From contig JBBDJP010000005.1 of the NCBI GenBank assembly GCA_040879805.1, forward strand, positions 1 through 43,938: a DNA stretch of 43,938 bases. Direction: 5' to 3'. The number at the start of each line of letters is the position of its first letter. Within the stretch, counting starts at the first letter, position 1. The notes under the pieces were generated by a model, which saw only the letters and a program-made list of their open reading frames with translations, had not been told where the DNA came from and did not search any database. Source of the DNA: Candidatus Pacearchaeota archaeon. Lineage in GTDB: Archaea > Nanobdellota > Nanobdellia > Pacearchaeales > GW2011-AR1. Both the position numbers and the translations under genes were made by a program. Positions 19,065 through 32,829 of this stretch are shown piece by piece.

Positions 19065-20420
19065 TTAATCCTTATTTTTAAAATTATCTTTGTTCTTGTT
19101 TTTCTTTATCTTATTTTTCTGTTTTGATTTTTTAGATTTTTTAGACTTTTTTTTAAAATCTTTCTGCTTATTTTTACTTGAAACATAATTAAGAGGGTTC
19201 TTGTATCTTAACTCTTCATCCGTAGGAGTTATTCCTATTCCCTTATAATAATCTTTATCATAGTTCGGAGGAGGAACAACTTTATTCCTATAACTCCAAA
19301 GTAGCTGTGATTTTATGTATCCTTCTTTAAGAGGGGCTTCATTCTTCTCGTTCCAATCTTTAATTCTCTTTTCAATTTCATCCTTATCCATGCCAATAGA
19401 TCTGAAAAAATTCAAAATAATAAATAATGCTCTTTTTCTCCCATCTCCTATTCCTTCAAGAATTTTTTTTATTGATGGAGGCATTATGTCTTCAGAGAGA
19501 TTTGTAACCTTGAGAGGTTTATATTCAATTCTCTCTTTTATTTTTTGATTTTCTTCCGGATTTTTATTTTTATACCAATCAAGAGCTTCCCTTAATAATT
19601 CGGTTGCCTCTCCTTCTTCTGCTTCAGGCATAAAATTCCTAACTTTTATTTTTAGAGGGTCTGCATCTTTAGGTTGAAAATCTCCAATCTTATCCGGATT
19701 TATAACTACGCTTGCCAAAGATGTTTTTTCATGTAAAGAGTAGGGCATTCTAAATAAGTGTCTAGAGGATACTAAAATTAAATCAGGAACAACCTCTTTT
19801 GGAGCTTCGAAATCTTTTATATATTTGTTCTGGCCAAATTCTTCTTTTGTTAAATCAGTCACTTTCTCTATTAGCTCTTTTTTAGAAACATTCATTATGA
19901 ACTGAGTTATTATTCTTGGCCATTCAGGAAACATATCAGAAGTCATCACTCCATTTATTTCTTTAGGGAAAGCTTTCCAAGGAACAATTATGTGAAATCC
20001 TTTGCTTCCTGAAAATTTTATTCCAAAATTTTTGACTCCATAAAATCTTAAGATATTTATAATTATTTTAGCCAGAATTTTACTATAATCCATGTATTTA
20101 CTATCGATGTCAAAAAGTAAATCCCACCCTTTTCTTAATTTGTTAAGTTGCTCCCTGTTTAAATCTGTTGAAATTTTTAGAGGATCTTCCCAAATTTCTT
20201 CACTACAGTGAAATGATGTTGCTCCTTTATTTACAAGGCTAAAAATATCTCCAGAGTACTGAAAAGTATCTGGTCTTTTTCCAAAACTCCTCATCATAAA
20301 ACTCGGAGCAATCTCTCTGTTCTTTGAAAAATTATAAATGGCATCCTGGATATCTTTTCTAGAATAATACAATGACTTTACATTGTCTATTCTTTGTTCT
20401 TTTACTGAGGACTTTTCCAT
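19065..20420 (-). CDS. Single-chain DNA primase (PriS catalytic domain fused to PriL-CTD/PriX-like domain)
   Basis: LLFDIDS, FSGSKGFHI, RHLFRMPYSLHEKT; C-terminal PPSIKKIL..DGRKRALF..NFF. Confidence 0.85.
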   Translation of the reverse strand: MEKSSVKEQRIDNVKSLYYSRKDIQDAIYNFSKNREIAPSFMMRSFGKRPDTFQYSGDIFSLVNKGATSFHCSEEIWEDPLKISTDLNREQLNKLRKGWDLLFDIDSKYMDYSKILAKIIINILRFYGVKNFGIKFSGSKGFHIIVPWKAFPKEINGVMTSDMFPEWPRIITQFIMNVSKKELIEKVTDLTKEEFGQNKYIKDFEAPKEVVPDLILVSSRHLFRMPYSLHEKTSLASVVINPDKIGDFQPKDADPLKIKVRNFMPEAEEGEATELLREALDWYKNKNPEENQKIKERIEYKPLKVTNLSEDIMPPSIKKILEGIGDGRKRALFIILNFFRSIGMDKDEIEKRIKDWNEKNEAPLKEGYIKSQLLWSYRNKVVPPPNYDKDYYKGIGITPTDEELRYKNPLNYVSSKNKQKDFKKKSKKSKKSKQKNKIKKNKNKDNFKNKD

Positions 20421-20511: not shown

Positions 20512-21237
20512 ATGTTAATAAGACTTGAAAATCCAAAACCGCTGTCAAGAGTCATAGATATAATCTCTGATTTAGTTACTGAGGTCCGAATTAAAGTGGA
20601 CGATTCTGGTTTTAGTATAACTGCAATGGATCCTGCAAATGTTGCATTAGTTAACTTTGTTTTACCAAAAAATTCTTTCACACAATTTGAAGCAGATACT
20701 GAAGTACTGGGAGTTAATTTGGAAAGTCTCAAAGGAATATTAAAGCGATGTGGTACAACAAGCACACTTACTTTGGAGAAAAAAGAGAATATTTTGAATA
20801 TTGGTATCCAAGACAGAATCAAAAGAGACTTTAAACTGAGTTTGATTGAAATTGATTCTGAAGAAAAAGAAATGCCAAAACTTGAGTTTGCTGCGGAAGT
20901 CGAATTAGCTTCCCAAGATCTTTCTGATTCAATTGAAGATTGTCTTGTAGTTGCAGATGCCTGTTCATTTAAAATAAAAGATAAAAAATTTGTTGTTGAA
21001 GCAAAAGGGTTGAACTCTGCAAGATCTGAATTTTCAGAAGACGAAGCAAGAATACATGCTGAAGATTGTAAATCTCGTTACAGCCTTGAATATCTTCAAA
21101 AATTTATAAAAGGTGCTAAACTTTCTGGAAAAACTATTTTAAAATTTGCTAATGATCATCCTTTAAGAATGGATATAAAGAATGATTTTCTAGAACTTTC
21201 ATTTCTTCTTGCACCTCGTGTTGAAACTGAAGATTAA
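20512..21237 (+). CDS. pcn: PCNA sliding clamp
   Basis: AMDPANVALV, SRYSLEYL, FLLAPRVE. Confidence 0.96.
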   Translation: MLIRLENPKPLSRVIDIISDLVTEVRIKVDDSGFSITAMDPANVALVNFVLPKNSFTQFEADTEVLGVNLESLKGILKRCGTTSTLTLEKKENILNIGIQDRIKRDFKLSLIEIDSEEKEMPKLEFAAEVELASQDLSDSIEDCLVVADACSFKIKDKKFVVEAKGLNSARSEFSEDEARIHAEDCKSRYSLEYLQKFIKGAKLSGKTILKFANDHPLRMDIKNDFLELSFLLAPRVETED

Positions 21238-21310
21238 AACCTAAATAAAGGGTAAATGATTTAGAAAAAATCCTAACAAGATTTATAAATAAAATTTTCC
21301 TATAAAACCT

Positions 21311-22135
21311 ATGATTAAAAGGGGGGATTTTAGTAAATATCTTAGTCTTAAGAAAGGTCAAGTAACTCTTTTTATTATAATTGCAATTTTGATTGTTGGA
21401 GGTATAGCTTTGTTTCTCTTTTTGTCTCCAGATATAGGAAGTGAAGGCGTGCAATTTGATGAGCAAAATCCTCAGATTTTTATGCAAACTTGTTTAGAAG
21501 ATGATTTAATAGAAACTATAGATGTGATTTCTCTTCAAGGAGGAAGTATGAACTCTGAACACTCTATCAGGTATGATGGGATGAATGTAGAATATTTATG
21601 TTACACTAGTGAGTATCTTGTCCCTTGTAAAATTAGTAGAATCAATTTAAAAGACCATATGGAATCTGAAATAGAGAACGAAATAAGAAATAATGTAGGA
21701 ACTTGTTTTGATTCACTTATAGAAAGCTACCAAGAAAGAGGATATGCAGTTCAAGAAAACAGAGGACTAACAAGTATTGAGATTCTTCCTAAAAGAATAG
21801 ATGTAAATTTAGAAGAATATGATTTGACAGTTTCTAGAGATGGAACTGAAAGGTTTGAAAATTTTAATATGATTTTAAACAATAATCTTTATGAACGTAT
21901 AAATATTGCTAATGATATTATTGATTGGGAAGCGACAAATGGAAAATTTTCGAAAGCTCTTGCATATGAAATGATTTATACTGGAACAAAAATTGAGATA
22001 CAAGGACAGGAAGATGGTTCAAGAATTTATGTTTTATCAGATAGAGAAACTGGCGAAACGCTCCAGTTTGCAGTAAGAAGTGTTGCAAGAGGTCCTGGAT
22101 ATGAGGAAGTTCCAATAATATATGGAGAAGAATAA
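21311..22135 (+). CDS. Class III signal-peptide (pilin-like) protein
   Basis: LKKG|QVTLFIIIAILIVGGIALFLFL. Confidence 0.75.
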   Translation: MIKRGDFSKYLSLKKGQVTLFIIIAILIVGGIALFLFLSPDIGSEGVQFDEQNPQIFMQTCLEDDLIETIDVISLQGGSMNSEHSIRYDGMNVEYLCYTSEYLVPCKISRINLKDHMESEIENEIRNNVGTCFDSLIESYQERGYAVQENRGLTSIEILPKRIDVNLEEYDLTVSRDGTERFENFNMILNNNLYERINIANDIIDWEATNGKFSKALAYEMIYTGTKIEIQGQEDGSRIYVLSDRETGETLQFAVRSVARGPGYEEVPIIYGEE

Positions 22136-23939
22136 AATGAAAAGAATAAAATTAAGTTTAACTATTTTTTTAGGAATCTTTTTACTTGGTGTTCTATTAA
22201 TAATTAACTTGAATCTTGTAAATGCTGAGCTAGAATCTTTTTATTGTGCAGAAAGAACTCTTGATGGCGCATGGTGTCAGAATGTTCCTCTTGATGAAGT
22301 CGATGAAGATTATGATTACCTTCCCACTTCTTGTGACTCTACTGATTTTTGTAGAACTGGAACTTGTGTGAATCCTAATGAAGGTGCTTGTAGGCCTAAT
22401 GTTCCTCAAAGAGTTTGTGAGGCTGATGGAGGTGTCTGGGATGAAAGGCCAAGAGAAGAAATAAATAGATGTCAATTAGGATGTTGTTATATTGGAAGTG
22501 GAGCTTCTTTTGTTACACAAACAAAATGTTCAAGCCTTTCTGGAGAATATGGAATAGAAATAGAGGAATTTAATCCTAACATAAAAAATTCTGGGCAATG
22601 TCTTGCAAGTGCATTTCCTGAAGATGAAGGTGCTTGTACTTCTGATGATGGGTTTGTAACAAGTTGTGAAATGTTGACTAGTGAAAGATGTGAAAGTAGG
22701 ATATCTAGCTCTGGAGAGGATGTAATTGTAGAATTTCATCGAGGTGAATTGTGTACCTCACCTAGATTAGACACTATTTGTAGTCCAACTGAAAGAACAA
22801 CTCTTGTAGATAATAAAGATGGTGTCTTTTTTTTAGATAGTTGTGGAAATGTTGCAAATATTTATGATGCAACTAGGCAAGATGATCCAACCTACTGGGA
22901 AACTATAATTTCTGAGGGTGATAGCTGCTCTCTTGATAATGACTTGTCTAATTCAAATGCTTGTGGAAATTGTAATGTTTTTGACGGAAGTATTGGAAAA
23001 ATATATGATAGAAATAATAATCAAATGTTTCCAAATCCTCCGATTATGGGAAACTATATGTGTGCTGATTTGAGTTGTAAAAGTGGTAAATTTGCAGAAG
23101 ATTTTAGGGATAGGTTTGGAAGATGGGCTCAACAAGGAGAGTCATGGTGTGGAAATACTGCACTACAAGGATTTGAAAATACTCCTGGAAGTGAACATTC
23201 TAGGTTTGAATGTTCTTTCGGAGAGGTTGAAGCAGAATCTGGAGATCCATTCAGACAAACAATATGTTCTGAAACAGAGTTTGTAATTGAAGGTCAAGAA
23301 GAAGGATTCAAAACAGGTAATTTTAGGCCAAATAGGTGGCATGATTGTACTATTACAACTACTCAAGAAGATTGTGAAGATATTCAATCAAGAGATTGTG
23401 AGTGGGTCGAAGGTGAAACTCTTGGGTTGCTTCATGTAGATGACGATGGATTAAAATTAGTGGTTAATGAGGATGGAGAACTTGTTTCAAGAGATCAAAC
23501 TAATAGTAAAACTGGTGCTGCATGTATTCCAAAATATCCTGTAGGAACTTTCTTCTGGGAGCCCGAAACACGAAAAGAAATCCTTCAAGGAGAAAGCTCT
23601 GGACAACTTTGTATGATTGGAGGTGATTTTTGTGTTGCAAGATTTGAAAGAACTAGAATAGCAGGAATACTTGGTGAAGATTTTAAGTGTGTAGAAAATT
23701 GTGATTGTGTTGGATTGGATGAAGGAGATTCAAGACCTGGCAGAACTTCTGCAGAAAATAGTATCTTTAATAGCGATTGGTTTGAACACAGAAATGATAT
23801 GTGTGTTGCATTAGGAGATTGTGGACTAATTGAAAATTATATTGGAGAACAAGGTAGATGGAGTGAAGATGATTTAGTACAATACAATCGTGATATTGAT
23901 GAAAACTTTGAACCAGAATTTGAAGGTGATGAAGAATAA
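22122..23939 (+). CDS. Large secreted Cys-rich acidic protein
   Basis: Sec signal ending VNA|EL; about 37 Cys by hand count; start may be ATG 22137. Confidence 0.8.
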   Translation: MEKNKMKRIKLSLTIFLGIFLLGVLLIINLNLVNAELESFYCAERTLDGAWCQNVPLDEVDEDYDYLPTSCDSTDFCRTGTCVNPNEGACRPNVPQRVCEADGGVWDERPREEINRCQLGCCYIGSGASFVTQTKCSSLSGEYGIEIEEFNPNIKNSGQCLASAFPEDEGACTSDDGFVTSCEMLTSERCESRISSSGEDVIVEFHRGELCTSPRLDTICSPTERTTLVDNKDGVFFLDSCGNVANIYDATRQDDPTYWETIISEGDSCSLDNDLSNSNACGNCNVFDGSIGKIYDRNNNQMFPNPPIMGNYMCADLSCKSGKFAEDFRDRFGRWAQQGESWCGNTALQGFENTPGSEHSRFECSFGEVEAESGDPFRQTICSETEFVIEGQEEGFKTGNFRPNRWHDCTITTTQEDCEDIQSRDCEWVEGETLGLLHVDDDGLKLVVNEDGELVSRDQTNSKTGAACIPKYPVGTFFWEPETRKEILQGESSGQLCMIGGDFCVARFERTRIAGILGEDFKCVENCDCVGLDEGDSRPGRTSAENSIFNSDWFEHRNDMCVALGDCGLIENYIGEQGRWSEDDLVQYNRDIDENFEPEFEGDEE

Positions 23940-23959
23940 TAAATTATAAAATTTACAAA

Positions 23960-26125
23960 ATGAAAAAGGATAAAATTTTAAAAAGAAAATTTAGAGGCAG
24001 CATGGCCATAGGTGAAATAGCAATTCTCATAATAAGTGTTATTGCTTTTTCATATCTTCTTGGAGGGAGTATTCCTTCCGTAGATGCACAAACATTTGAG
24101 GGTTCTGTTACTAATCCAGGAAGACTAACAGAACTAGCTAATGAACCTTTTCCATTTAAGATTGGACCTGTAAGCCAAACAATAAAGACAACCACAGCAT
24201 CAGAGACAGCAAAACTGACTGCAAGAGAAATGTTCAGTGCTACACCTAATACTGCTGGAGGTTGGGGTTATCTTGGATATGGTTTAATACATTTAGGATA
24301 TGCTTTCGGAATATACTCTTTAGCAGGAATACTTGGAGATAGGATGGACTTGACAGATAGAGATAAAAGTATTTTACAATGGTCTTCTGCAGGGGCATAT
24401 TTAGCAGGTGCAATAATCACAAAAATTGCAGTTGTTCAAGGATCTAGCTCTTGGCTTTTAACGACAAGTGTTTCTTTTCTTGGACTCTCAGTTCTTGGTT
24501 TAATTGGTATGGGTGTAGCTATTCTTCTCACTCTTCTTTTTAGCTCAGTTTCAAAAAATGACTCTGTTACATTTTCATGCCTGCCTTGGGATGCTCCAAC
24601 AAATGGAGATAATTGTGAAGTGTGTAATGATGAAGATATTCCTTGTACTGAATATAGGTGTATGAGTCTAGGAACTCATTGTGAATATTTGAAAGAAGAA
24701 AGATTATGTGTCTTTGACGATGCTATTGATACTAATCCTGTGGTAATTGAACCTAATGAAGATGTTTTAACTCAGGGCTACACATACACTCCAGATAATG
24801 TTGTTTCTCCTCCAAACAGAGGTGTGAAAATAGTTCCTGAAGAAAACTTGAATGGGTGTGTTTCTCCATTCACTCCTTTGAAATTTGGAGTTAACCTTTT
24901 CAATGATACTTCACTTGAAGAACCAAGACCTGCAAGATGTAAACTAAGTTCAGAAAGACCTGATGATTTTGACGACATGAATATTTGGTTGAGCAATGGA
25001 CTAGTCTCTTATGATCACTCTTTCCAAATGAATATTCCCAGTATAGATTCATTAAGTGCTGAAAATATTTCTCTGAGGGAAGGGGGAGAATTTTCAGTAT
25101 ATTTAAGATGTGAGACAAGACAAGGATATCGAAATACAAATGATTTTATCTTTAATTTCTGTGTTGATGATGGTCCAAATACTTGGGAGCCCGAAATAAC
25201 TAGAACAAGTATAGTAAATAACTCTTTTATTTCTCATTTCTCAGAAGAAGAAGAAAGAGAAGTTGATGTAACTATCTTTACAAGTGAGCCTTCCCAATGT
25301 AGATGGAATAGGGGAAATCCTTTAGCATATGAAGACATGCCTGAAGAAAATCAAATAAATTGTCCTGCTAGTCTTAGTGCTACAAGAATGGAATCTCAAG
25401 GAGATTATAGGTGTGAAGGAACAACTCTTAAAGGTTTATTGAATAATCAGAACAATGATTATTACATCAGTTGTATTGATCAACCTCACTTAGAAGGGAC
25501 CGAAGAAGAACATGATCGAAACTCAATGCAAGTCCCATATCACTTTAGATTAAGAGGCACTGAACCTTTGGTAATTTCTTCTTCAAGTCCAAATAATGTT
25601 TCCCTTGTAGATTCTACTCAATTAATTAGAGTTAACCTTGAAGTTGAGACTTTTGCAGGGGCAGACAGAGGTAATGCAATCTGTTCCTTTAGTCCTTCTG
25701 GTGAAAATAAATTTGTAAGATTCTTTGAAACTGGGACTCATGAACATAAACAACCATTAGATCATCCTGAGGGAGATTATTCTTATGATATTAGGTGTAC
25801 TGATGATGGAGGAAATTCTGACTCAACTCAAATAAACTTCACTGTTGAAACGGATACAACAGCTCCAAGAGTAGTTAGAGTCTTTAAAGAAAGTAATAAC
25901 CTTAAGATTATAACTAACGAAGGTGGAAAATGTGTTTATGATACTGTAAGTTGTAATTATAATTTTGAAGTTGGAATTGGAATGAGTTCAAGCAATTCAG
26001 ACAAATCTCATACTACAGGATGGGATGCAAATAAAAACTTCTATATAAAATGTGAAGATGAGTTTGGAAATAGGCCTGCACCAAATCAATGTAGTATTAC
26101 TGTAAGACCTTTTGATGTTGCTTAA
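23960..26125 (+). CDS. Large membrane-anchored Cys-rich/Ig-like protein with class III-like N-terminus
   Basis: KRKFRG|SMAIGEIAILII; several TM segments near aa 100-195; Cys cluster; DTTAP Ig-like repeats. Confidence 0.75.
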   Translation: MKKDKILKRKFRGSMAIGEIAILIISVIAFSYLLGGSIPSVDAQTFEGSVTNPGRLTELANEPFPFKIGPVSQTIKTTTASETAKLTAREMFSATPNTAGGWGYLGYGLIHLGYAFGIYSLAGILGDRMDLTDRDKSILQWSSAGAYLAGAIITKIAVVQGSSSWLLTTSVSFLGLSVLGLIGMGVAILLTLLFSSVSKNDSVTFSCLPWDAPTNGDNCEVCNDEDIPCTEYRCMSLGTHCEYLKEERLCVFDDAIDTNPVVIEPNEDVLTQGYTYTPDNVVSPPNRGVKIVPEENLNGCVSPFTPLKFGVNLFNDTSLEEPRPARCKLSSERPDDFDDMNIWLSNGLVSYDHSFQMNIPSIDSLSAENISLREGGEFSVYLRCETRQGYRNTNDFIFNFCVDDGPNTWEPEITRTSIVNNSFISHFSEEEEREVDVTIFTSEPSQCRWNRGNPLAYEDMPEENQINCPASLSATRMESQGDYRCEGTTLKGLLNNQNNDYYISCIDQPHLEGTEEEHDRNSMQVPYHFRLRGTEPLVISSSSPNNVSLVDSTQLIRVNLEVETFAGADRGNAICSFSPSGENKFVRFFETGTHEHKQPLDHPEGDYSYDIRCTDDGGNSDSTQINFTVETDTTAPRVVRVFKESNNLKIITNEGGKCVYDTVSCNYNFEVGIGMSSSNSDKSHTTGWDANKNFYIKCEDEFGNRPAPNQCSITVRPFDVA

Positions 26126-26165
26126 TCAAGGATAAATTAATAAACTTATTTTTTCTTTCAGTTTT

Positions 26166-26666
26166 ATGAATAAAAAGGGGCAAATTAAGATATCTTTTGG
26201 CATGATTTTTTCTGTAATAATGATTGTCATTTTCTTGGTCTTTGCTTTTTATGCAATAAGAACTTTTTTTGGAATACAAGAAACAGCACAAACTGGAAAA
26301 TTTATTGATGACTTACAATCTGATGTAAACACAATATGGAGAAGTACTGAAGGATCTCAAGAAAGAACTTATAGACTTTCTAAAAAAATTAGTCATGTTT
26401 GTTTTGGTGATTTTGAACGAGATGGGACTGGGCCTAGACAATCAATTTATGGAGAGCTTGAATTTAATTATTTTGGAAGTGAAAATATTTTCTTCTACCC
26501 TACTGAATCTTCAAATCCAGGATCTTTTGAAATTAAGAATGTTGATATTTTAGAAATAACTCTTAATGAAAATCCTTATTGTATTGACAATGAAGATGGG
26601 ACTCTTGAATTAGTTCTTATCAAGGACTTTGGAGAGCCACTTGTTAAAATAGAGAGGGCAAACTGA
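26166..26666 (+). CDS. Class III signal-peptide (pilin-like) protein
   Basis: MNKKG|QIKISFGMIFSVIMIVIFLVFAF. Confidence 0.8.
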   Translation: MNKKGQIKISFGMIFSVIMIVIFLVFAFYAIRTFFGIQETAQTGKFIDDLQSDVNTIWRSTEGSQERTYRLSKKISHVCFGDFERDGTGPRQSIYGELEFNYFGSENIFFYPTESSNPGSFEIKNVDILEITLNENPYCIDNEDGTLELVLIKDFGEPLVKIERAN

Positions 26667-27604
26667 TGATTATAAAAAATAAATCTGGATTTCAAATGTC
26701 TTTTGCTTGGATTTTTGCAATAATTGTGGGAGTTTTCATACTTTTTTTAGCAATATATGGAGTTACTCAGTTCTCAGATACTGGTGAAGATGTTTCTGAT
26801 ATAAGTGCTGGGTCTGAAATAGGTGGAATTTTGAGTGCTTTGGAAACTGGAGTCGAATCTGGACAGGTGACTTCTCTTAGAATGCCGTTAGAAACGAGAA
26901 TTATAAACGGATGTAATCCTGAAGGAACTTTTGGAACTCAATCTATAGGAATATCTCAAAAAAATCGTGGGAGTTGGAGTGAATCTGACCTTGAAGTTAC
27001 TTTTAGAGATAAATATCTTTTTTCAGAAAGAAATGTTCAGGGAAGATCTTTTTTCTTTTTCTCAAAACCATTTGAACTTCCTTTTGAAGTTGCAGATCTT
27101 ACTTATGTAACATCTTCTGAAGACAATTATTGCTTTGTAGATGCTCCTGAAAATATTAAAGAGGAACTTGAAAACCTTGGACAAGAAAATATGTTCACCG
27201 AAGATTCTTTTGATAGTTGTCAAGAAACTAGTATAAAAGTTTGTTTTGAAAATTTTGGAGAAGATTGTGAGGTTGAAGTTGATTATCTTTCCGGAAAAGT
27301 TGTTAAGAACAGAGAAAGTGTTTATTTTGAAACGGACTCTCTTATGTATGCTGCCATTTTTTCAGAACCTCAATATTATGAATGTCAGGTTGAAAGACTA
27401 ATTAAGAAAACAGATGAACTTTCTTCAATTTATGAGAGTAAAGCAAATATTATTTCTGCAGAGGGTTGTAATTCAAATGTAGATCTTGGCTCTTTTAGAA
27501 ATTTATTGGGAAATTATAGAGACTCTTCAAATCTTTTGGATATTGCAATAACTGCAAATAATATAGATTCTCAAAATTCTAGAGAGAGATGTAAATTATG
27601 GTAA
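26666..27604 (+). CDS. Class III signal-peptide (pilin-like) protein
   Basis: KNKSG|FQMSFAWIFAIIVGVFILFLAI; TGATG coupling. Confidence 0.75.
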   Translation: MIIKNKSGFQMSFAWIFAIIVGVFILFLAIYGVTQFSDTGEDVSDISAGSEIGGILSALETGVESGQVTSLRMPLETRIINGCNPEGTFGTQSIGISQKNRGSWSESDLEVTFRDKYLFSERNVQGRSFFFFSKPFELPFEVADLTYVTSSEDNYCFVDAPENIKEELENLGQENMFTEDSFDSCQETSIKVCFENFGEDCEVEVDYLSGKVVKNRESVYFETDSLMYAAIFSEPQYYECQVERLIKKTDELSSIYESKANIISAEGCNSNVDLGSFRNLLGNYRDSSNLLDIAITANNIDSQNSRERCKLW

Positions 27605-28128
27605 AAAGGCTTAATAAGAAAGGGCAAATGAAAATTCAACAGATGGCTTTTATGCTTCTAGCCGTGACTTTGTTTTTTGCTTTAGTTGGAATGTTTTTCT
27701 TAATGATTTTTTTCTCAGATATTGAAAATTCTGCAGAGAGTATTGAAGAAAGAAATTCTTTATTACTTGTTTCTTCTATTGTAAATTCTCCCGAGTTTGC
27801 TTGTGGTAGTGCTTTTGGGAGTACTAAACTTAATTGTATTGATTTTGATAAATTAATGGCTCTTCAGAGTAATTCAAATAGATATTCTAATTTTTGGAAG
27901 GTTGATGGGATTGAGGTTCGGAAAATTTTCCCTTCCGATTCTGGAGTGTGTACTTTTAGTAATTATCCTAATTGTGGAAAGATAATTATTGTTGATAATG
28001 AAGGTTCTGGAGTAGGAATTTCTAATTTTGCCGCCTTATGTAGGAATGAAGATAGGGGAGAAGGAAGAAGCGTGGGTGAAAGGTGTGAACTTGCAAGGAT
28101 TATTGTTTATCATGGAGGTGAAGAATGA
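27598..28128 (+). CDS. Class III signal-peptide (pilin-like) protein
   Basis: LNKKG|QMKIQQMAFMLLAVTLFFALVG. Confidence 0.8.
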   Translation: MVKRLNKKGQMKIQQMAFMLLAVTLFFALVGMFFLMIFFSDIENSAESIEERNSLLLVSSIVNSPEFACGSAFGSTKLNCIDFDKLMALQSNSNRYSNFWKVDGIEVRKIFPSDSGVCTFSNYPNCGKIIIVDNEGSGVGISNFAALCRNEDRGEGRSVGERCELARIIVYHGGEE

Positions 28129-28610
28129 ATTTTATAAATAAAAAAGGGCAAGAAGAAATTGTTGGTTTTGCAGTGATAATTGTGATTGTTGTTGTAGTTC
28201 TACTTTTTTTCCTAAGTTTTTATATTCGAGGAGATAGTAGTGAGGGAGTTGAAAGTTTTGAAGCTGCTAGTTTTATACAATCTTCTCTCCATTTTACAAC
28301 AGAATGTGAAGGAAACTTAGGTAATTATGATGTTCGTAGGTTAATTTCTGAGTGTAGTGATGAAAGTCAGTGTTTGGATGGAAGGGATGCTTGTAATGTT
28401 CTAGAATCAACTCTTGAAGATCTCATAAATGCAGGGTGGCAAGTAGGTGAAGATCGACCTGTTAAAGGATATGAGCTTTTTATTAGTTCGAATCAAAATA
28501 ATTTAATTAATGTTTCAGAGGGGAATATTACAAGGAATTTTAGAGGAACTTTCCAAGACTATGTTTTAGGAGATAGGATTGAAATATCTTTTAGAGCTTA
28601 TTATGAGTAA
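28125..28610 (+). CDS. Class III signal-peptide (pilin-like) protein
   Basis: INKKG|QEEIVGFAVIIVIVVVVLLFF; ATGA overlap. Confidence 0.8.
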   Translation: MNFINKKGQEEIVGFAVIIVIVVVVLLFFLSFYIRGDSSEGVESFEAASFIQSSLHFTTECEGNLGNYDVRRLISECSDESQCLDGRDACNVLESTLEDLINAGWQVGEDRPVKGYELFISSNQNNLINVSEGNITRNFRGTFQDYVLGDRIEISFRAYYE

Positions 28611-28622
28611 TTCTGGGTTTGA

Positions 28623-28976
28623 TTAGACTTTTATATGAATTGTTAATGTTTCTACAGATACAACAGGCTTATGTCTTACTCTTTTCTTTGTTTTTTCCTC
28701 TAAAAGCTCTATAAATCCAAATCTTTCAAGGAGTTTTACGTCATCACTTACTGATTTGAAGTTTCTTCCTAGTTTTTTAGCTAAATCATATATGGATCTT
28801 GGTTCTTGAGTCTTTATTACGTGTAAAATACGGGCTCTCTCGTTACTTAATAGCCTTCTTAGTACTGAAAGACCTTCAAAATTATAGTCTTTTTTTGAAA
28901 ATCCTGATCTTTTGAAGATAGAGAAAGTTCCTTTTGACTCTGTTATTGTTATTTCTCTTGTTTTTGTAGTTGCCAT
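28623..28976 (-). CDS. Winged-helix DNA-binding protein (HVO_A0114-like)
   Basis: LLSNERARIL...PRSIYDLAKKLGRNFKSVSDDVKLLERFGFI. Confidence 0.8.
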   Translation of the reverse strand: MATTKTREITITESKGTFSIFKRSGFSKKDYNFEGLSVLRRLLSNERARILHVIKTQEPRSIYDLAKKLGRNFKSVSDDVKLLERFGFIELLEEKTKKRVRHKPVVSVETLTIHIKV

Positions 28977-30471: not shown

Positions 30472-32829
30472 ATGAAATACAATTTTAGAAAAATCTCTGC
30501 TATAGCTATGAGTGTAATGACTCTTGGTTTGACTGCAGGAGTTGCTCCACTTGTATCAGGTGCAGATTACCCAGCCCCATTCGTTGATAACGGAAGTGCT
30601 GATTTTGCAGTTGTACACGGTTCAGGAGCTGCTGCAACAGACCAAGCAGAAGCAACATCTGTTGCTAACTCGCTTTTGGCTTTGGCTAGTGGTGGTGTTT
30701 CAGGAGTAGGTACAGACAGTATTCAGCTTCAAAGAAGCTCTGATGAATTCAATCTTGGAAACAATATGACTGACTTTTATACAACTCTTGATGATGAAGA
30801 ATTGTCAGTTGTTCTTGAGAACGGGATTTACTTCAATGATGAAAATGACGATTTTGATTACGAACAAGAATTGACTCTTCCAAGTACAAGTCAGCTTACT
30901 CATTTTAGAGACAGAGACTACAACGATTACGAACCTACGATTGGTTTCCACCTTGCAAAAGGAGATGCAATCCTTAACTATACTTTGGAATTTACTCCAA
31001 ATGCTGTAGAAGCGGGTTCAAACTATGACGACCTTGAAAGCACTTTTATAGAAATTCTTGGAAAAGAATACTTTATATCAGAAGTGTCTAATGATGGAAC
31101 TTCAATAACTTTATTGGATTCTGCCTCAACGACATTGCTTAATCAAGGAGATACAACAACAGTAACTGTCGATGGAACTTCTTATGAAGTGAGCATACAA
31201 GCTATCTCTGGTACTGGAGCCATTTTGGTTGTTGACGGAGAGTCTACCAATAGACTTGGTGATGGAGATACGCAAAAACTTTCAGGAGGTAATGTGCACA
31301 TTGGTGTTACAGACTTCCAGGAAGCTGCTTTCCAAGGAGACAATGCTTTCGTTGAGTTTAGTCTAGGATCTGGAGAAATCGTAATTGAAAATGGCGTGGA
31401 AGTTGAAATAAACGGAGATGCTATAAGTCAAATCGATGAATATGATGGACACAAGCTTAATGGATACACTCTTTCAAACCCTAGTAACGAAACTATCATT
31501 CTTGAATGGTTAGCTGATGATGATGTTTTCATTACACAGGATAGTGAGTTGACTCTACCAGGATTCGGAGGTGTGAAGTTCACAATGGGTGACTTCGTAA
31601 CCGATACTGAGGAAACAACAACCTTCAACACTGGAGATCCTTTTAGTATTACAACAACAGTTGAAGATGGAGAAGTAACATTAGACATCTTTTATCTGAA
31701 TGGTACTGAAGACGGCTTCGGAACAAATCTTGGAGCAAGCAGTGTAAGACATTTGATAACAAATCAAACAGGAGGAACTAATTCAACTGTTGAACTTAAC
31801 TTAGATAACGAAACATACTTCGTTGCTTCTTGGACTGATGGTTCAAGAGATGCAGAAACATATGTTTACGAACTAAGTAACATAAAGGATAACAGTGGTA
31901 AGAACGAAACCACATTGACAAGCCTTTCAGGAGGTTCAAATGTTGTTTTCAGTGATACTACTGATGACCAAGATGTTGGAAGATTAAGATTAACTCTTAC
32001 TGCTTCTGATGTTGGTGCTGAAACTGCAACCGTTAAGGTTGAAGCTGTAAGTAGTGGAAGTGTCTATACAGACAGAGTTTTCACTGCAGAAGGCTTGCAG
32101 TTCAAGCTTCCTGTAATCGATGGAGCAAACACTACGGAAAATTTCATCTTCTTGGACTCTAATGTGACGTTTGATTTTAACTTCACAGAGGAAGATAGAG
32201 ATGGAAACATCGCAAGTGGAAGTTCTTTCCAAATCTCAACAAGCATTGATTCTGATGATGGAATTGAAGCTGATGGAGAAACTGGAGTAGGTGTACTTCA
32301 AATCGGTAGAACTGGAGATAACTATGTTGGTTATGTTGAATCTGATCTTGCAACAAGAGTTGACTGGACAAAAGATACCAGTGGACTTGACGCAATGCAA
32401 GTTACATACCATGGAAGTGAAGCTTACGCAGAAGTCTTTGTATCATCAACAGATGCTACAGACGATGGAAGTATTGAGCTAGGAGATGTTCTTGTAACAG
32501 ATTCTGAGGTGAGTTCTGTACAGAACAGAAACTTGGTTGTTATTGGTGGAAGCTGTATAAACTCAGTTGCTGCTAATTTAGTTGGTGGAGCATATTGTGG
32601 TTCTGCATGGACAGACGCTACTGGCGTTGGTTCTGGAGAATTCGTAATTGAAAGCTTCGAGAATCCAAACAACGATGATGCAGTTGCATTACTTGTAGCT
32701 GGATACGAAAGAGATGACACTGTAAATGCTGCGACATACTTAAGACAACAAGGAGACGGATTGAACGTGGATGTTGGCGAAAAGTATACTGGTAGCACAT
32801 CAACAAGTGTTGAAGCTGTCGTTAACTAA
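30472..32829 (+). CDS. S-layer protein
   Basis: Signal peptide, ADYPAPFV..DFAVVHG N-terminal and NLVVIGGSCINSVAA..LLVAGYE C-terminal S-layer motifs; very acidic; AGGAGGT SD. Confidence 0.88.
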   Translation: MKYNFRKISAIAMSVMTLGLTAGVAPLVSGADYPAPFVDNGSADFAVVHGSGAAATDQAEATSVANSLLALASGGVSGVGTDSIQLQRSSDEFNLGNNMTDFYTTLDDEELSVVLENGIYFNDENDDFDYEQELTLPSTSQLTHFRDRDYNDYEPTIGFHLAKGDAILNYTLEFTPNAVEAGSNYDDLESTFIEILGKEYFISEVSNDGTSITLLDSASTTLLNQGDTTTVTVDGTSYEVSIQAISGTGAILVVDGESTNRLGDGDTQKLSGGNVHIGVTDFQEAAFQGDNAFVEFSLGSGEIVIENGVEVEINGDAISQIDEYDGHKLNGYTLSNPSNETIILEWLADDDVFITQDSELTLPGFGGVKFTMGDFVTDTEETTTFNTGDPFSITTTVEDGEVTLDIFYLNGTEDGFGTNLGASSVRHLITNQTGGTNSTVELNLDNETYFVASWTDGSRDAETYVYELSNIKDNSGKNETTLTSLSGGSNVVFSDTTDDQDVGRLRLTLTASDVGAETATVKVEAVSSGSVYTDRVFTAEGLQFKLPVIDGANTTENFIFLDSNVTFDFNFTEEDRDGNIASGSSFQISTSIDSDDGIEADGETGVGVLQIGRTGDNYVGYVESDLATRVDWTKDTSGLDAMQVTYHGSEAYAEVFVSSTDATDDGSIELGDVLVTDSEVSSVQNRNLVVIGGSCINSVAANLVGGAYCGSAWTDATGVGSGEFVIESFENPNNDDAVALLVAGYERDDTVNAATYLRQQGDGLNVDVGEKYTGSTSTSVEAVVN

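Follow-up and report, generated by a model that had tools for sequence, protein, structure and literature searches.

A conserved seven-gene operon of Pacearchaeota probably encodes an undescribed cell-surface structure

Seven adjacent genes of a Candidatus Pacearchaeota archaeon probably build an undescribed cell-surface structure, the machinery for which is coded elsewhere in the genome. The genes, g1 to g7, occupy positions 21311-28610 on the forward strand of a 43,938-nucleotide stretch of DNA, the whole of which is referred to here as the window. Their open reading frames were verified at these coordinates and are tightly packed, with overlaps of 14 nt (g1/g2), 1 nt (g4/g5), 7 nt (g5/g6) and 4 nt (g6/g7) and with gaps of 20 and 40 nt at the remaining junctions (g2/g3 and g3/g4). 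An earlier note on this DNA had described seven coupled genes with these overlaps in a DPANN archaeon; both the layout and the lineage were correct, the organism being a member of the Pacearchaeota. A TATA-like box that lies some 20-29 nt before the ATG of g1, read from the sequence, is a possible promoter for a leaderless operon transcript. A scan for sigma-70 promoters and terminators, which is not relevant to archaea, gave counts equal to those in shuffled controls. The operon and its neighbours are listed below, with a slash marking the class III cleavage site.

20512..21237, + strand: PCNA, the upstream neighbour (PF00705/PF02747), directly 5' of g1 in relatives
21282..21291, + strand: TATA-like box (tttataaata), possible promoter
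21311..22135, + strand: g1, class III-signal protein (LKKG/QVTLFIIIAI), 274 aa, 4 Cys, globular alpha/beta ectodomain
22122..23939, + strand: g2, Sec-exported protein, 605 aa, 37 Cys, N-terminal half of the g2/g3 ectoprotein
23960..26125, + strand: g3, 721 aa, N-terminus of Sec type or a signal anchor, as judged from orthologue columns and hydropathy
26166..26666, + strand: g4, prepilin-like, 166 aa (NKKG/QIKISFGMIFS)
26666..27604, + strand: g5, prepilin-like, 312 aa (NKSG/FQMSFAWIFA), 8 conserved Cys
27598..28128, + strand: g6, prepilin-like, 176 aa (NKKG/QMKIQQMAFML), three conserved Cys pairs
28125..28610, + strand: g7, prepilin-like, 161 aa (NKKG/QEEIVGFAVII)
28623..28976, - strand: convergent winged-helix protein, HVO_A0114/MarR-like, 117 aa (PF25212, E=1.7e-19)
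30472..32829, + strand: downstream secreted S-layer-like protein, 785 aa (PF05124 S_layer_C, 41.3 bits, above cut-off)

Comparison with about 110 related loci revealed a conserved class III signal, [KR][KR][G/A/S] followed by the cleavage site, Gln and a hydrophobic helix, in g1, g4, g5, g6 and g7. Each of these proteins has a basic leader, G, A or S at -1 and a hydrophobic run of about 20 residues, kept across 75-105 orthologues per family. The -1 column reads G64/A9/S1 in g1 (75 sequences; +1 Q74), G69/A12/S4 in g4 (88 sequences; +1 Q71), A53/G51/S1 in g6 (105 sequences; +1 Q104) and G53/A41/S9 in g7 (103 sequences; +1 Q103, +2 E88, +3 E101, +6 G102); g5 is the only prepilin-like member with a variable +1 residue (Y/F/A/G/Q after G/A). 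Retention of the [GAS]/Q junction across orders counts for a prepilin-type reading, as there is no reason for an ordinary signal anchor to preserve it. The earlier note had assigned class III N-termini to six genes. A basic stretch, a G and a hydrophobic run are literally present in six of the seven, which exceeds chance because the same deliberately loose scan finds just 31 such N-termini among 422 gene-like ORFs genome-wide (about 1e-6 for one block). The signal is conserved in five, however, and g3 is the exception: among 64 sequences its -1 column reads K26/G17/S5, so that the G is not conserved, whereas conservation is seen at a V-S-A/G site that follows the hydrophobic run. We therefore count five class III proteins rather than six. 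By these columns a class III assignment of g3 is less likely and a Sec-type N-terminus more likely, with a conserved Q/E five residues into the helix leaving the class III possibility.

The five class III families are alike only over their N-terminal 30-80 residues (hhalign); the first 80 residues of g4, for example, resemble those of g5 (96%). The genes g4, g5, g6 and g7 are always found as a block comprising one copy of each of four distinct families, of which g5 is the largest, and the operon has no obvious major pilin. The AF2 model of g6 (pLDDT 90) consists of a 55-residue N-terminal helix (residues 8-62) and a sheet of 4-5 strands, with one conserved Cys pair flanking the last hairpin. 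Thus the concern, raised in the earlier note, that models might lack a pilin alpha-1 helix does not apply to the predicted structure of g6. The order of its modelled secondary-structure elements fits the pilin lollipop fold, yet a Foldseek search against PDB matched no solved pilin or other structure (best E 0.66). Relatives of g6 are present in 336 species genomes and form 2337 clusters, the best 120 of 2337 being all unnamed or hypothetical.

The protein g1 departs from a canonical pilin. Its AF2 model (pLDDT 89.7) has a short helix (residues 15-38), a disordered linker (43-50) and a separate globular domain (54-256) instead of a continuous long alpha-1 helix. Foldseek searches of PDB and BFVD with this model returned nothing at E < 0.001, and TM-scores were about 0.1-0.25 for g6 (PDB) and g1 (PDB, BFVD). 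In related loci, g1 partners every g2/g3 module and is not tied to g4-g7. Its family comprises 9081 representatives at 50% clustering, and in the same genome a paralogue lies directly 5' of the gene for a 2242-aa secreted giant with a lytic-transglycosylase domain. The position of this paralogue suggests a general role for g1-type proteins as partners of large surface proteins.

A class III signal on a non-pilin ectodomain with a flexible linker, the layout of g1, is the hallmark of bindosome proteins (PMC13705601). The operon would then encode solute- or polymer-binding subunits that feed transporters, and it shares further features with the Sulfolobus bindosome, namely genes located away from the motor (Bas in Sulfolobus) and, as we propose here, the use of class III signals to mount non-filament proteins in the envelope. 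Unlike in the bindosome, substrate-binding-protein domains are absent from all seven proteins (Pfam, NCBIfam), no expected ABC-transporter genes were recorded beside the operon in homology searches covering 112 related loci, and a Cys-rich giant partner has no place in such a model. The missing binding domains and transporters led us to discard this reading as highly improbable.

The giant partner is composed of g2 and g3, the halves of a single large, disulfide-rich protein that in many relatives are fused into one polypeptide of 1000-1400 aa. As the earlier note had recognized, g2 is Sec-exported (..NLVNA/E, the slash marking the Sec-type site) and has 37 Cys, about 30 of which are invariant among 38 orthologues. 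The proposal that it acts as a free tip adhesin fails, given that g2 forms the N-terminal half of a protein in two parts. From its N-terminus, g3 contains the signal, a variable linker, internal hydrophobic Gly-rich segments (about 101-199) and a C-terminal ectodomain, conserved and rich in Cys, that spans about 520 aa; the protein as a whole has 21 Cys. The hydrophobic segments and the Cys-rich part had been noted before, together with Ig-like repeats; the latter correspond solely to a sub-threshold Big_13 signal (E=0.0038 in the window protein), seen in 20 of 41 orthologues. The variable linker of two g3 orthologues contains an inserted LysM, a domain that binds peptidoglycan or chitin. Judged by hydropathy, the internal hydrophobic segments probably anchor the g2/g3 protein in the membrane. 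In relatives, [g1][g2g3] modules are arranged in tandem and duplicated 1-3 times, whereas g4-g7 remain single copy.

Scans of all seven proteins against Pfam and NCBIfam yielded nothing at threshold, and PDB profile searches with g1, g2, g3, g5 and g6 found no relative, which agrees with the earlier impression that the ectodomains are unlike any recognized pilin. The Pfam pilin models (Pilin_N PF07790, Class_IIIsignal PF04021) and archaellin gave zero matches among the operon proteins even with E values up to 1. Their power in this lineage is low, because pilins from a locus of the same genome that codes for secretion machinery (C6) match Pilin_N only below threshold.

Genes for an assembly ATPase, a platform protein or a prepilin peptidase are absent from the window, as had been observed before, and also from the 10 kb around the operon across 112 loci that together span 1.7 Mb; assembly must consequently occur in trans. 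The required components are present outside the window. A single A24 prepilin peptidase with both catalytic Asp motifs (D23, AGGD86) was detected at C1:153510-154349, which settles the earlier doubt about whether the genome has one, and two T2SSE secretion ATPases and T2SSF platform proteins are encoded at the C1 and C6 loci. The A24 peptidase is found in 148 of the 151 genomes of the order and the N-domain of the C1-type ATPase in 400 of the 401 genomes of the class. Because the machinery is never within 10 kb of the operon, its link to the operon is one of co-presence, and because it is near-universal in the sampled groups, co-presence does not discriminate between partner systems.

We favour, tentatively and with somewhat less than an even chance, the view that the operon specifies a surface module related to type IV filaments but lacking a motor of its own, in which a minor-pilin-like complex displays a large adhesin. 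According to this model, g1 and g4-g7 would insert in the membrane and be cut by the A24 peptidase after G/A/S, exposing Gln at +1. Through their N-terminal helices, g4-g7 could then associate into a heteromeric stem or priming complex of minor-pilin type, for which one of the two ATPase/platform systems (C1 or C6 loci) might serve as the base or the assembler. Both large domains of g2/g3 would be extracellular, with the hydrophobic segments serving as a membrane anchor, and g1 may couple this ectoprotein to the stem through its flexible linker and globular domain. A likely role of the operon is contact with a surface or a host cell. The model draws support from the confinement of the likeness among g1 and g4-g7 to their N-termini, as in minor pilins, and from the g2+g3 fusions, the [g1][g2g3] duplications, the single-copy g4-g7 block and the LysM insertions. 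The modelled helix and sheet of g6, the peptidase, ATPases and platform proteins coded in the genome, the strict gene order and the g1 paralogue beside the lytic-transglycosylase giant also speak for it. It is weakened by the distance from any motor or peptidase gene in all 112 loci, by the missing Foldseek structure for g6 and g1, the lack of a Pfam pilin match and the short helix of g1, and by the apparent membrane anchoring of g2/g3, which sets this protein apart from known tip adhesins. The earlier interpretation, minor pilin-like subunits with a tip adhesin, thus survives as regards the class III set in one operon and assembly in trans, and is revised as regards the free g2 adhesin and the six sites.

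The complex may alternatively need no motor. The five class III proteins, whether processed or not, would in that case assemble passively with g2/g3 into a fixed heteromeric stem, with no polymerization and no ATPase, and would represent an organelle of a new, pilin-derived kind. In none of the 112 loci is the operon linked to an ATPase or platform gene, and the strict single-copy state of g4-g7 together with the lack of an obvious major pilin is in keeping with such an arrangement. However, every genome examined has T4F machinery, class III proteins known to be coded away from motors (bindosome subunits and many minor pilins) still need one, and positive evidence for independence is lacking. 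We regard passive assembly as distinctly unlikely.

The gene order of the operon is strictly kept across the 112 related loci, and the same order is found in hundreds of Pacearchaeota-type genomes. The g3 marker is present in 138 of the 151 genomes of the order, including 66 of the 68 high-quality ones, and in about a fifth of the other families in the class. Operon proteins diverge faster than PCNA (33-52% vs 62-68% identity). The winged-helix gene follows g7 in nearly all loci that extend that far. Beyond it, the S-layer-like gene, which the earlier note had not mentioned, has a same-strand homologue at a median of 780 nt past g7 in 56 of the 67 loci with at least 5 kb of downstream sequence.

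This last observation supports the main rival reading, in which the operon encodes a scaffold for the envelope or S-layer. Its pilin-like proteins would, with the membrane-anchored g2/g3, be stalks or anchors that hold the S-layer-like protein, making the operon a housekeeping wall component and not an organelle for attachment. The neighbour fits an envelope role equally well, which weakens our favoured model. The 785-aa protein lacks a membrane anchor, with no hydrophobic segment at its C-terminus, whereas g3 combines membrane segments with Ig-like beta-rich ectodomains; the prevalence of the g3 marker and the fixed position of the operon among core genes also point in this direction. Variable [g1][g2g3] copy number, LysM insertions and divergence faster than that of PCNA, on the other hand, are more adhesin-like. 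We found nothing resembling known S-layer anchors, whether SlaB-type or other, and the convergent gene that sits between the operon and the S-layer-like gene means that the two do not form one transcript. On balance a scaffold seems rather unlikely.

We compared the operon with systems in which small pilin-like proteins are encoded together. Bacterial minor-pilin operons with a large non-pilin adhesin, such as Pseudomonas fimU-pilVWXY1E, and the T2SS pseudopilin genes GspH-I-J-K resemble it in layout, being compact sets of genes for four or five distinct pilin-like proteins with only the N-terminal helix in common. As far as is known, GspK and PilX are without E5, and the much larger g5 (312 aa) likewise has no counterpart of the polar residue that is otherwise conserved near the N-terminus. 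The operon and these systems also share a Sec-exported partner of very large size. The operon differs from these sets in having no sequence or Foldseek similarity to them, in its [GAS]/Q sites and archaeal host, in a partner that is apparently membrane-anchored and made of two Cys-rich halves, split or fused, in the separate putative adaptor g1 and in the absence of a motor gene nearby. Among archaea, the Methanococcus Epd pilins described by Szabo et al. (2007) are reportedly cleaved by EppA and carry Gln at +1. Like such archaeal T4F accessory or minor pilin sets (Makarova, Koonin and Albers 2016, PMC4858521; PMC13705601), the operon has basic residues, a small -1 residue and Gln at +1, several small pilin-like genes in a row and, as we infer here, dependence on an A24 peptidase. 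Unlike them, it shows no PF07790 or PF04021 match at E up to 1 and never adjoins an ATPase or TadC gene. A 2026 survey of archaeal type IV filaments (PMC13705601) reports few T4F systems in DPANN, and this operon was not found in its text under DPANN, Nanoarchaeota, Pacearchaeota or class III signal peptide. Our literature searches and term look-ups likewise returned no description of it.

A bolder proposal, which we consider unlikely, joins the operon and the S-layer-like gene into a lineage-defining envelope organelle of Pacearchaeota and some related Nanoarchaeia. It would consist of a fixed heteromeric stem of four pilin-derived proteins that have lost the ability to polymerize, g1-type adaptors and interchangeable disulfide-rich giants (g2/g3, and the lytic-transglycosylase giant coded elsewhere) that would touch bacterial or other hosts, with g1 and g6 as folds that have no solved relative.

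The Pacearchaeota and allied lineages, which are ultra-small, abundant and uncultured, presumably spend their lives attached to other cells. Since the g3 marker is present in nearly all high-quality genomes of the order, the gene order is conserved and the seven proteins belong to no named family, the operon is a concrete, testable candidate for a host-contact or envelope structure of this group. Two of its proteins, g1 and g6, have confidently predicted folds with nothing alike among the structures solved in PDB. The operon also illustrates that a fixed set of pilin-like subunits can be retained at a distance from any motor gene, and the g1 family, which numbers more than 9000 clusters, may serve giant surface proteins in general as an adaptor.

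The block at 21311-28610 is filled by seven plus-strand ORFs (g1 to g7; 274, 605, 721, 166, 312, 176 and 161 aa). They overlap by 14, 1, 7 and 4 nt and are otherwise 20 and 40 nt apart, which confirms the tight coupling described in the earlier note. A TATA-like box (tttataaata, 21282-21291) lies 20-29 nt upstream of the first ATG; its position would fit, we infer, a leaderless operon transcript. The source genome (406 kb, 31% G+C, 73% complete), of which the window is contig C5:1-43938, is placed by its homologues in the Pacearchaeota, a DPANN lineage filed by GTDB under Nanoarchaeota. None of the seven proteins reached any threshold in Pfam and NCBIfam scans.

Conservation of the operon in relatives, suggested as a check, was borne out. 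Every related locus of sufficient length shows one and the same succession: (primase-) PCNA, g1 to g7, and then a convergent gene for a 117-aa winged-helix protein. Homologues of g3 are present in 138 of the 151 genomes of the order (66 of the 68 high-quality ones), and g6 relatives were recovered by a motif search from 336 species genomes. Beyond the order, the g3 profile matched 35 of 101 genomes of the class, about one fifth of other families, and the g6 profile matched 83 of 401 genomes; the arrangement g1, g2g3 fusion, g4, g5, g6, g7 was found, whole or in part, in 12 loci of other orders. Median identity to the proteins of the window is 33-52%, versus 62-68% for PCNA from the same loci; by this measure, the operon genes are kept yet diverge more rapidly than core proteins. 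At 50% clustering, 9081 representatives make up the g1 family. The g6 family comprises 2337 clusters, and the best 120 listed have neither a Pfam domain nor a name other than 'hypothetical protein'. One 5.7-kb contig with g6, g7 and the winged-helix gene (L081, JAZDGF010000018.1) is labelled 'Candidatus Levyibacteriota bacterium', probably because archaeal sequence was mis-binned into a CPR bacterial MAG. A literature search yielded no description of the conserved seven-gene set, the five class III families, the g2/g3 protein or the g1 adaptor pattern.

The residues around the putative cleavage site were counted in orthologues from the 112 related loci.

Residues at the putative cleavage site of the class III-signal proteins
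g1 (n = 75): -1 G64/A9/S1; +1 Q74
g4 (n = 88): -1 G69/A12/S4; +1 Q71
g5 (n = 102): -1 G/A; +1 variable
g6 (n = 105): -1 A53/G51/S1; +1 Q104
g7 (n = 103): -1 G53/A41/S9; +1 Q103; also E at +2 and +3 and G at +6

Throughout the five families, positions -2 and -3 are mostly K/R and a hydrophobic run follows. Judged from the alignments, this pattern corresponds to the class III (prepilin) signature, here with Gln at +1. Conservation of such residues would not be expected in a plain signal anchor. The earlier note had assigned class III signals to six of the seven proteins, of which g1 and g4-g7 hold and g3 probably does not: among 64 g3 orthologues, the column of G13 reads K26/G17/S5, whereas a V-S-A/G site past the hydrophobic run is conserved. 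We therefore read g3 as Sec-type or a signal anchor, with some doubt left by a conserved Q/E five residues into the helix. The N-terminus of g2 is an ordinary Sec signal. Of 422 gene-like ORFs, a loose genome-wide scan picked out 31 with class III-like N-termini, including six of the seven in the operon block, and most of the convincing ones fall in three clusters. A bindosome-like structure built from such class III proteins appears very improbable.

Profile-profile comparison confined the likeness among the five families to the first 30-80 residues. The g6 model (80-sequence alignment, pLDDT 90) consists of a helix (8-62), two short helices and a four- or five-strand sheet, the same predicted order of helix then sheet as in type IV pilins; three Cys pairs are conserved, and Foldseek returned no solved relative. 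In the g1 model (73 sequences, pLDDT 89.7), a helix (15-38) and a disordered stretch (43-50) precede a very confident alpha/beta domain (54-256) with no match in PDB or BFVD. As modeled, g1 is thus a globular protein on a class III anchor rather than a canonical pilin. More speculatively, g5, with its variable +1 residue and large size, is reminiscent of GspK and PilX, which are capping subunits.

Many relatives encode g2 and g3 together in one ORF of 1000-1400 aa, and the other-order loci with the module inside the fetched stretch have the fused form only; by this comparison, g2 and g3 are one protein. Tandem g1-g2g3 modules number one to three per genome, and g4-g7 are always single copy. 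About 30 Cys are invariant in g2 and about 20 in g3. The latter has a strongly hydrophobic 36-residue segment (164-199) preceded by two Gly-rich hydrophobic ones; as Cys-rich domains flank these segments on both sides, we infer that the chain crosses the membrane an even number of times and leaves both domains on the exterior. The Ig-like repeats claimed for g3 are reduced to sub-threshold Big_13 matches in the C-terminal part of 20 of 41 orthologues. Two orthologues carry LysM in the variable linker; g3 or g2g3 proteins with such an insertion (35.7 bits, above the cut-off) come from loci L065 (6019-8403, residues 51-77), L102 and L142, which hints at binding of peptidoglycan or a chitin-type glycan.

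The operon is flanked by the following genes.

19065-20420, minus strand: primase, 451 aa, with PF01896 (small subunit) and weak PF04104 (large subunit)
28623-28976, minus strand: HVO_A0114/MarR-like winged-helix protein, 117 aa
29028-29669: VapBC-like pair, a PIN-domain toxin (PF10130, E=1.3e-18) with a 79-aa upstream partner
30472-32829, plus strand: S-layer-like gene (PF05124), secreted, 785 aa, without a C-terminal anchor

The domain matches suggest that the primase is a fused PriS-PriL. The winged-helix gene, always convergent with g7, has the operon on one side and the S-layer-like gene on the other, and could regulate either. In the window, the PIN-toxin pair is inserted between the winged-helix gene and the S-layer-like gene; phmmer found no homologue of either member in the 112 related loci. 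The S-layer-like gene lies downstream on the same strand, a median of 780 nt past g7, in 56 of the 67 loci with enough sequence (L032-L131). This conserved neighbor, together with the almost universal presence of the operon, supports the main rival reading, an S-layer or envelope scaffold, which we consider less likely than the reading proposed below.

Assembly machinery was found only in trans, as anticipated, at two type-IV-filament-like loci on other contigs of the genome.

C1:153510-164058 (L144): A24 peptidase, seven small class III genes, an unassigned 716-aa protein and a 765-aa ATPase
C6:54439-62439 (L145): Pilin_N-like pilins, a 516-aa ATPase and two T2SSF proteins

The A24 peptidase, with D23 and AGGD86, is the only one detected in the genome; the enzyme occurs in 148 of the 151 genomes of the order, and 400 of the 401 class genomes have the C1-type ATPase (N-domain). 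The 112 loci (1.7 Mb) contain no homologues of the A24 peptidase, the ATPases or other such machinery. Class III proteins encoded apart from their motor are of a kind already known, and a motor-independent pilin-derived complex seems a rather improbable alternative.

A g1 paralogue (616 aa), with the g1-like N-terminus KKG|QVTIFIII, immediately precedes the gene for a secreted giant of 2242 aa that ends in a lytic-transglycosylase domain (C1:122392-130972, L146), and partnering giant surface proteins may be a general role of g1-type proteins. As the most likely reading, we tentatively propose that g4-g7 would build a minor-pilin-like stem or priming complex, processed by the A24 peptidase and handled by one of the two motors. 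To this stem, g1 would link the g2/g3 ectoprotein, bipartite and probably anchored in the membrane, and the whole would serve in contact with a surface or host.
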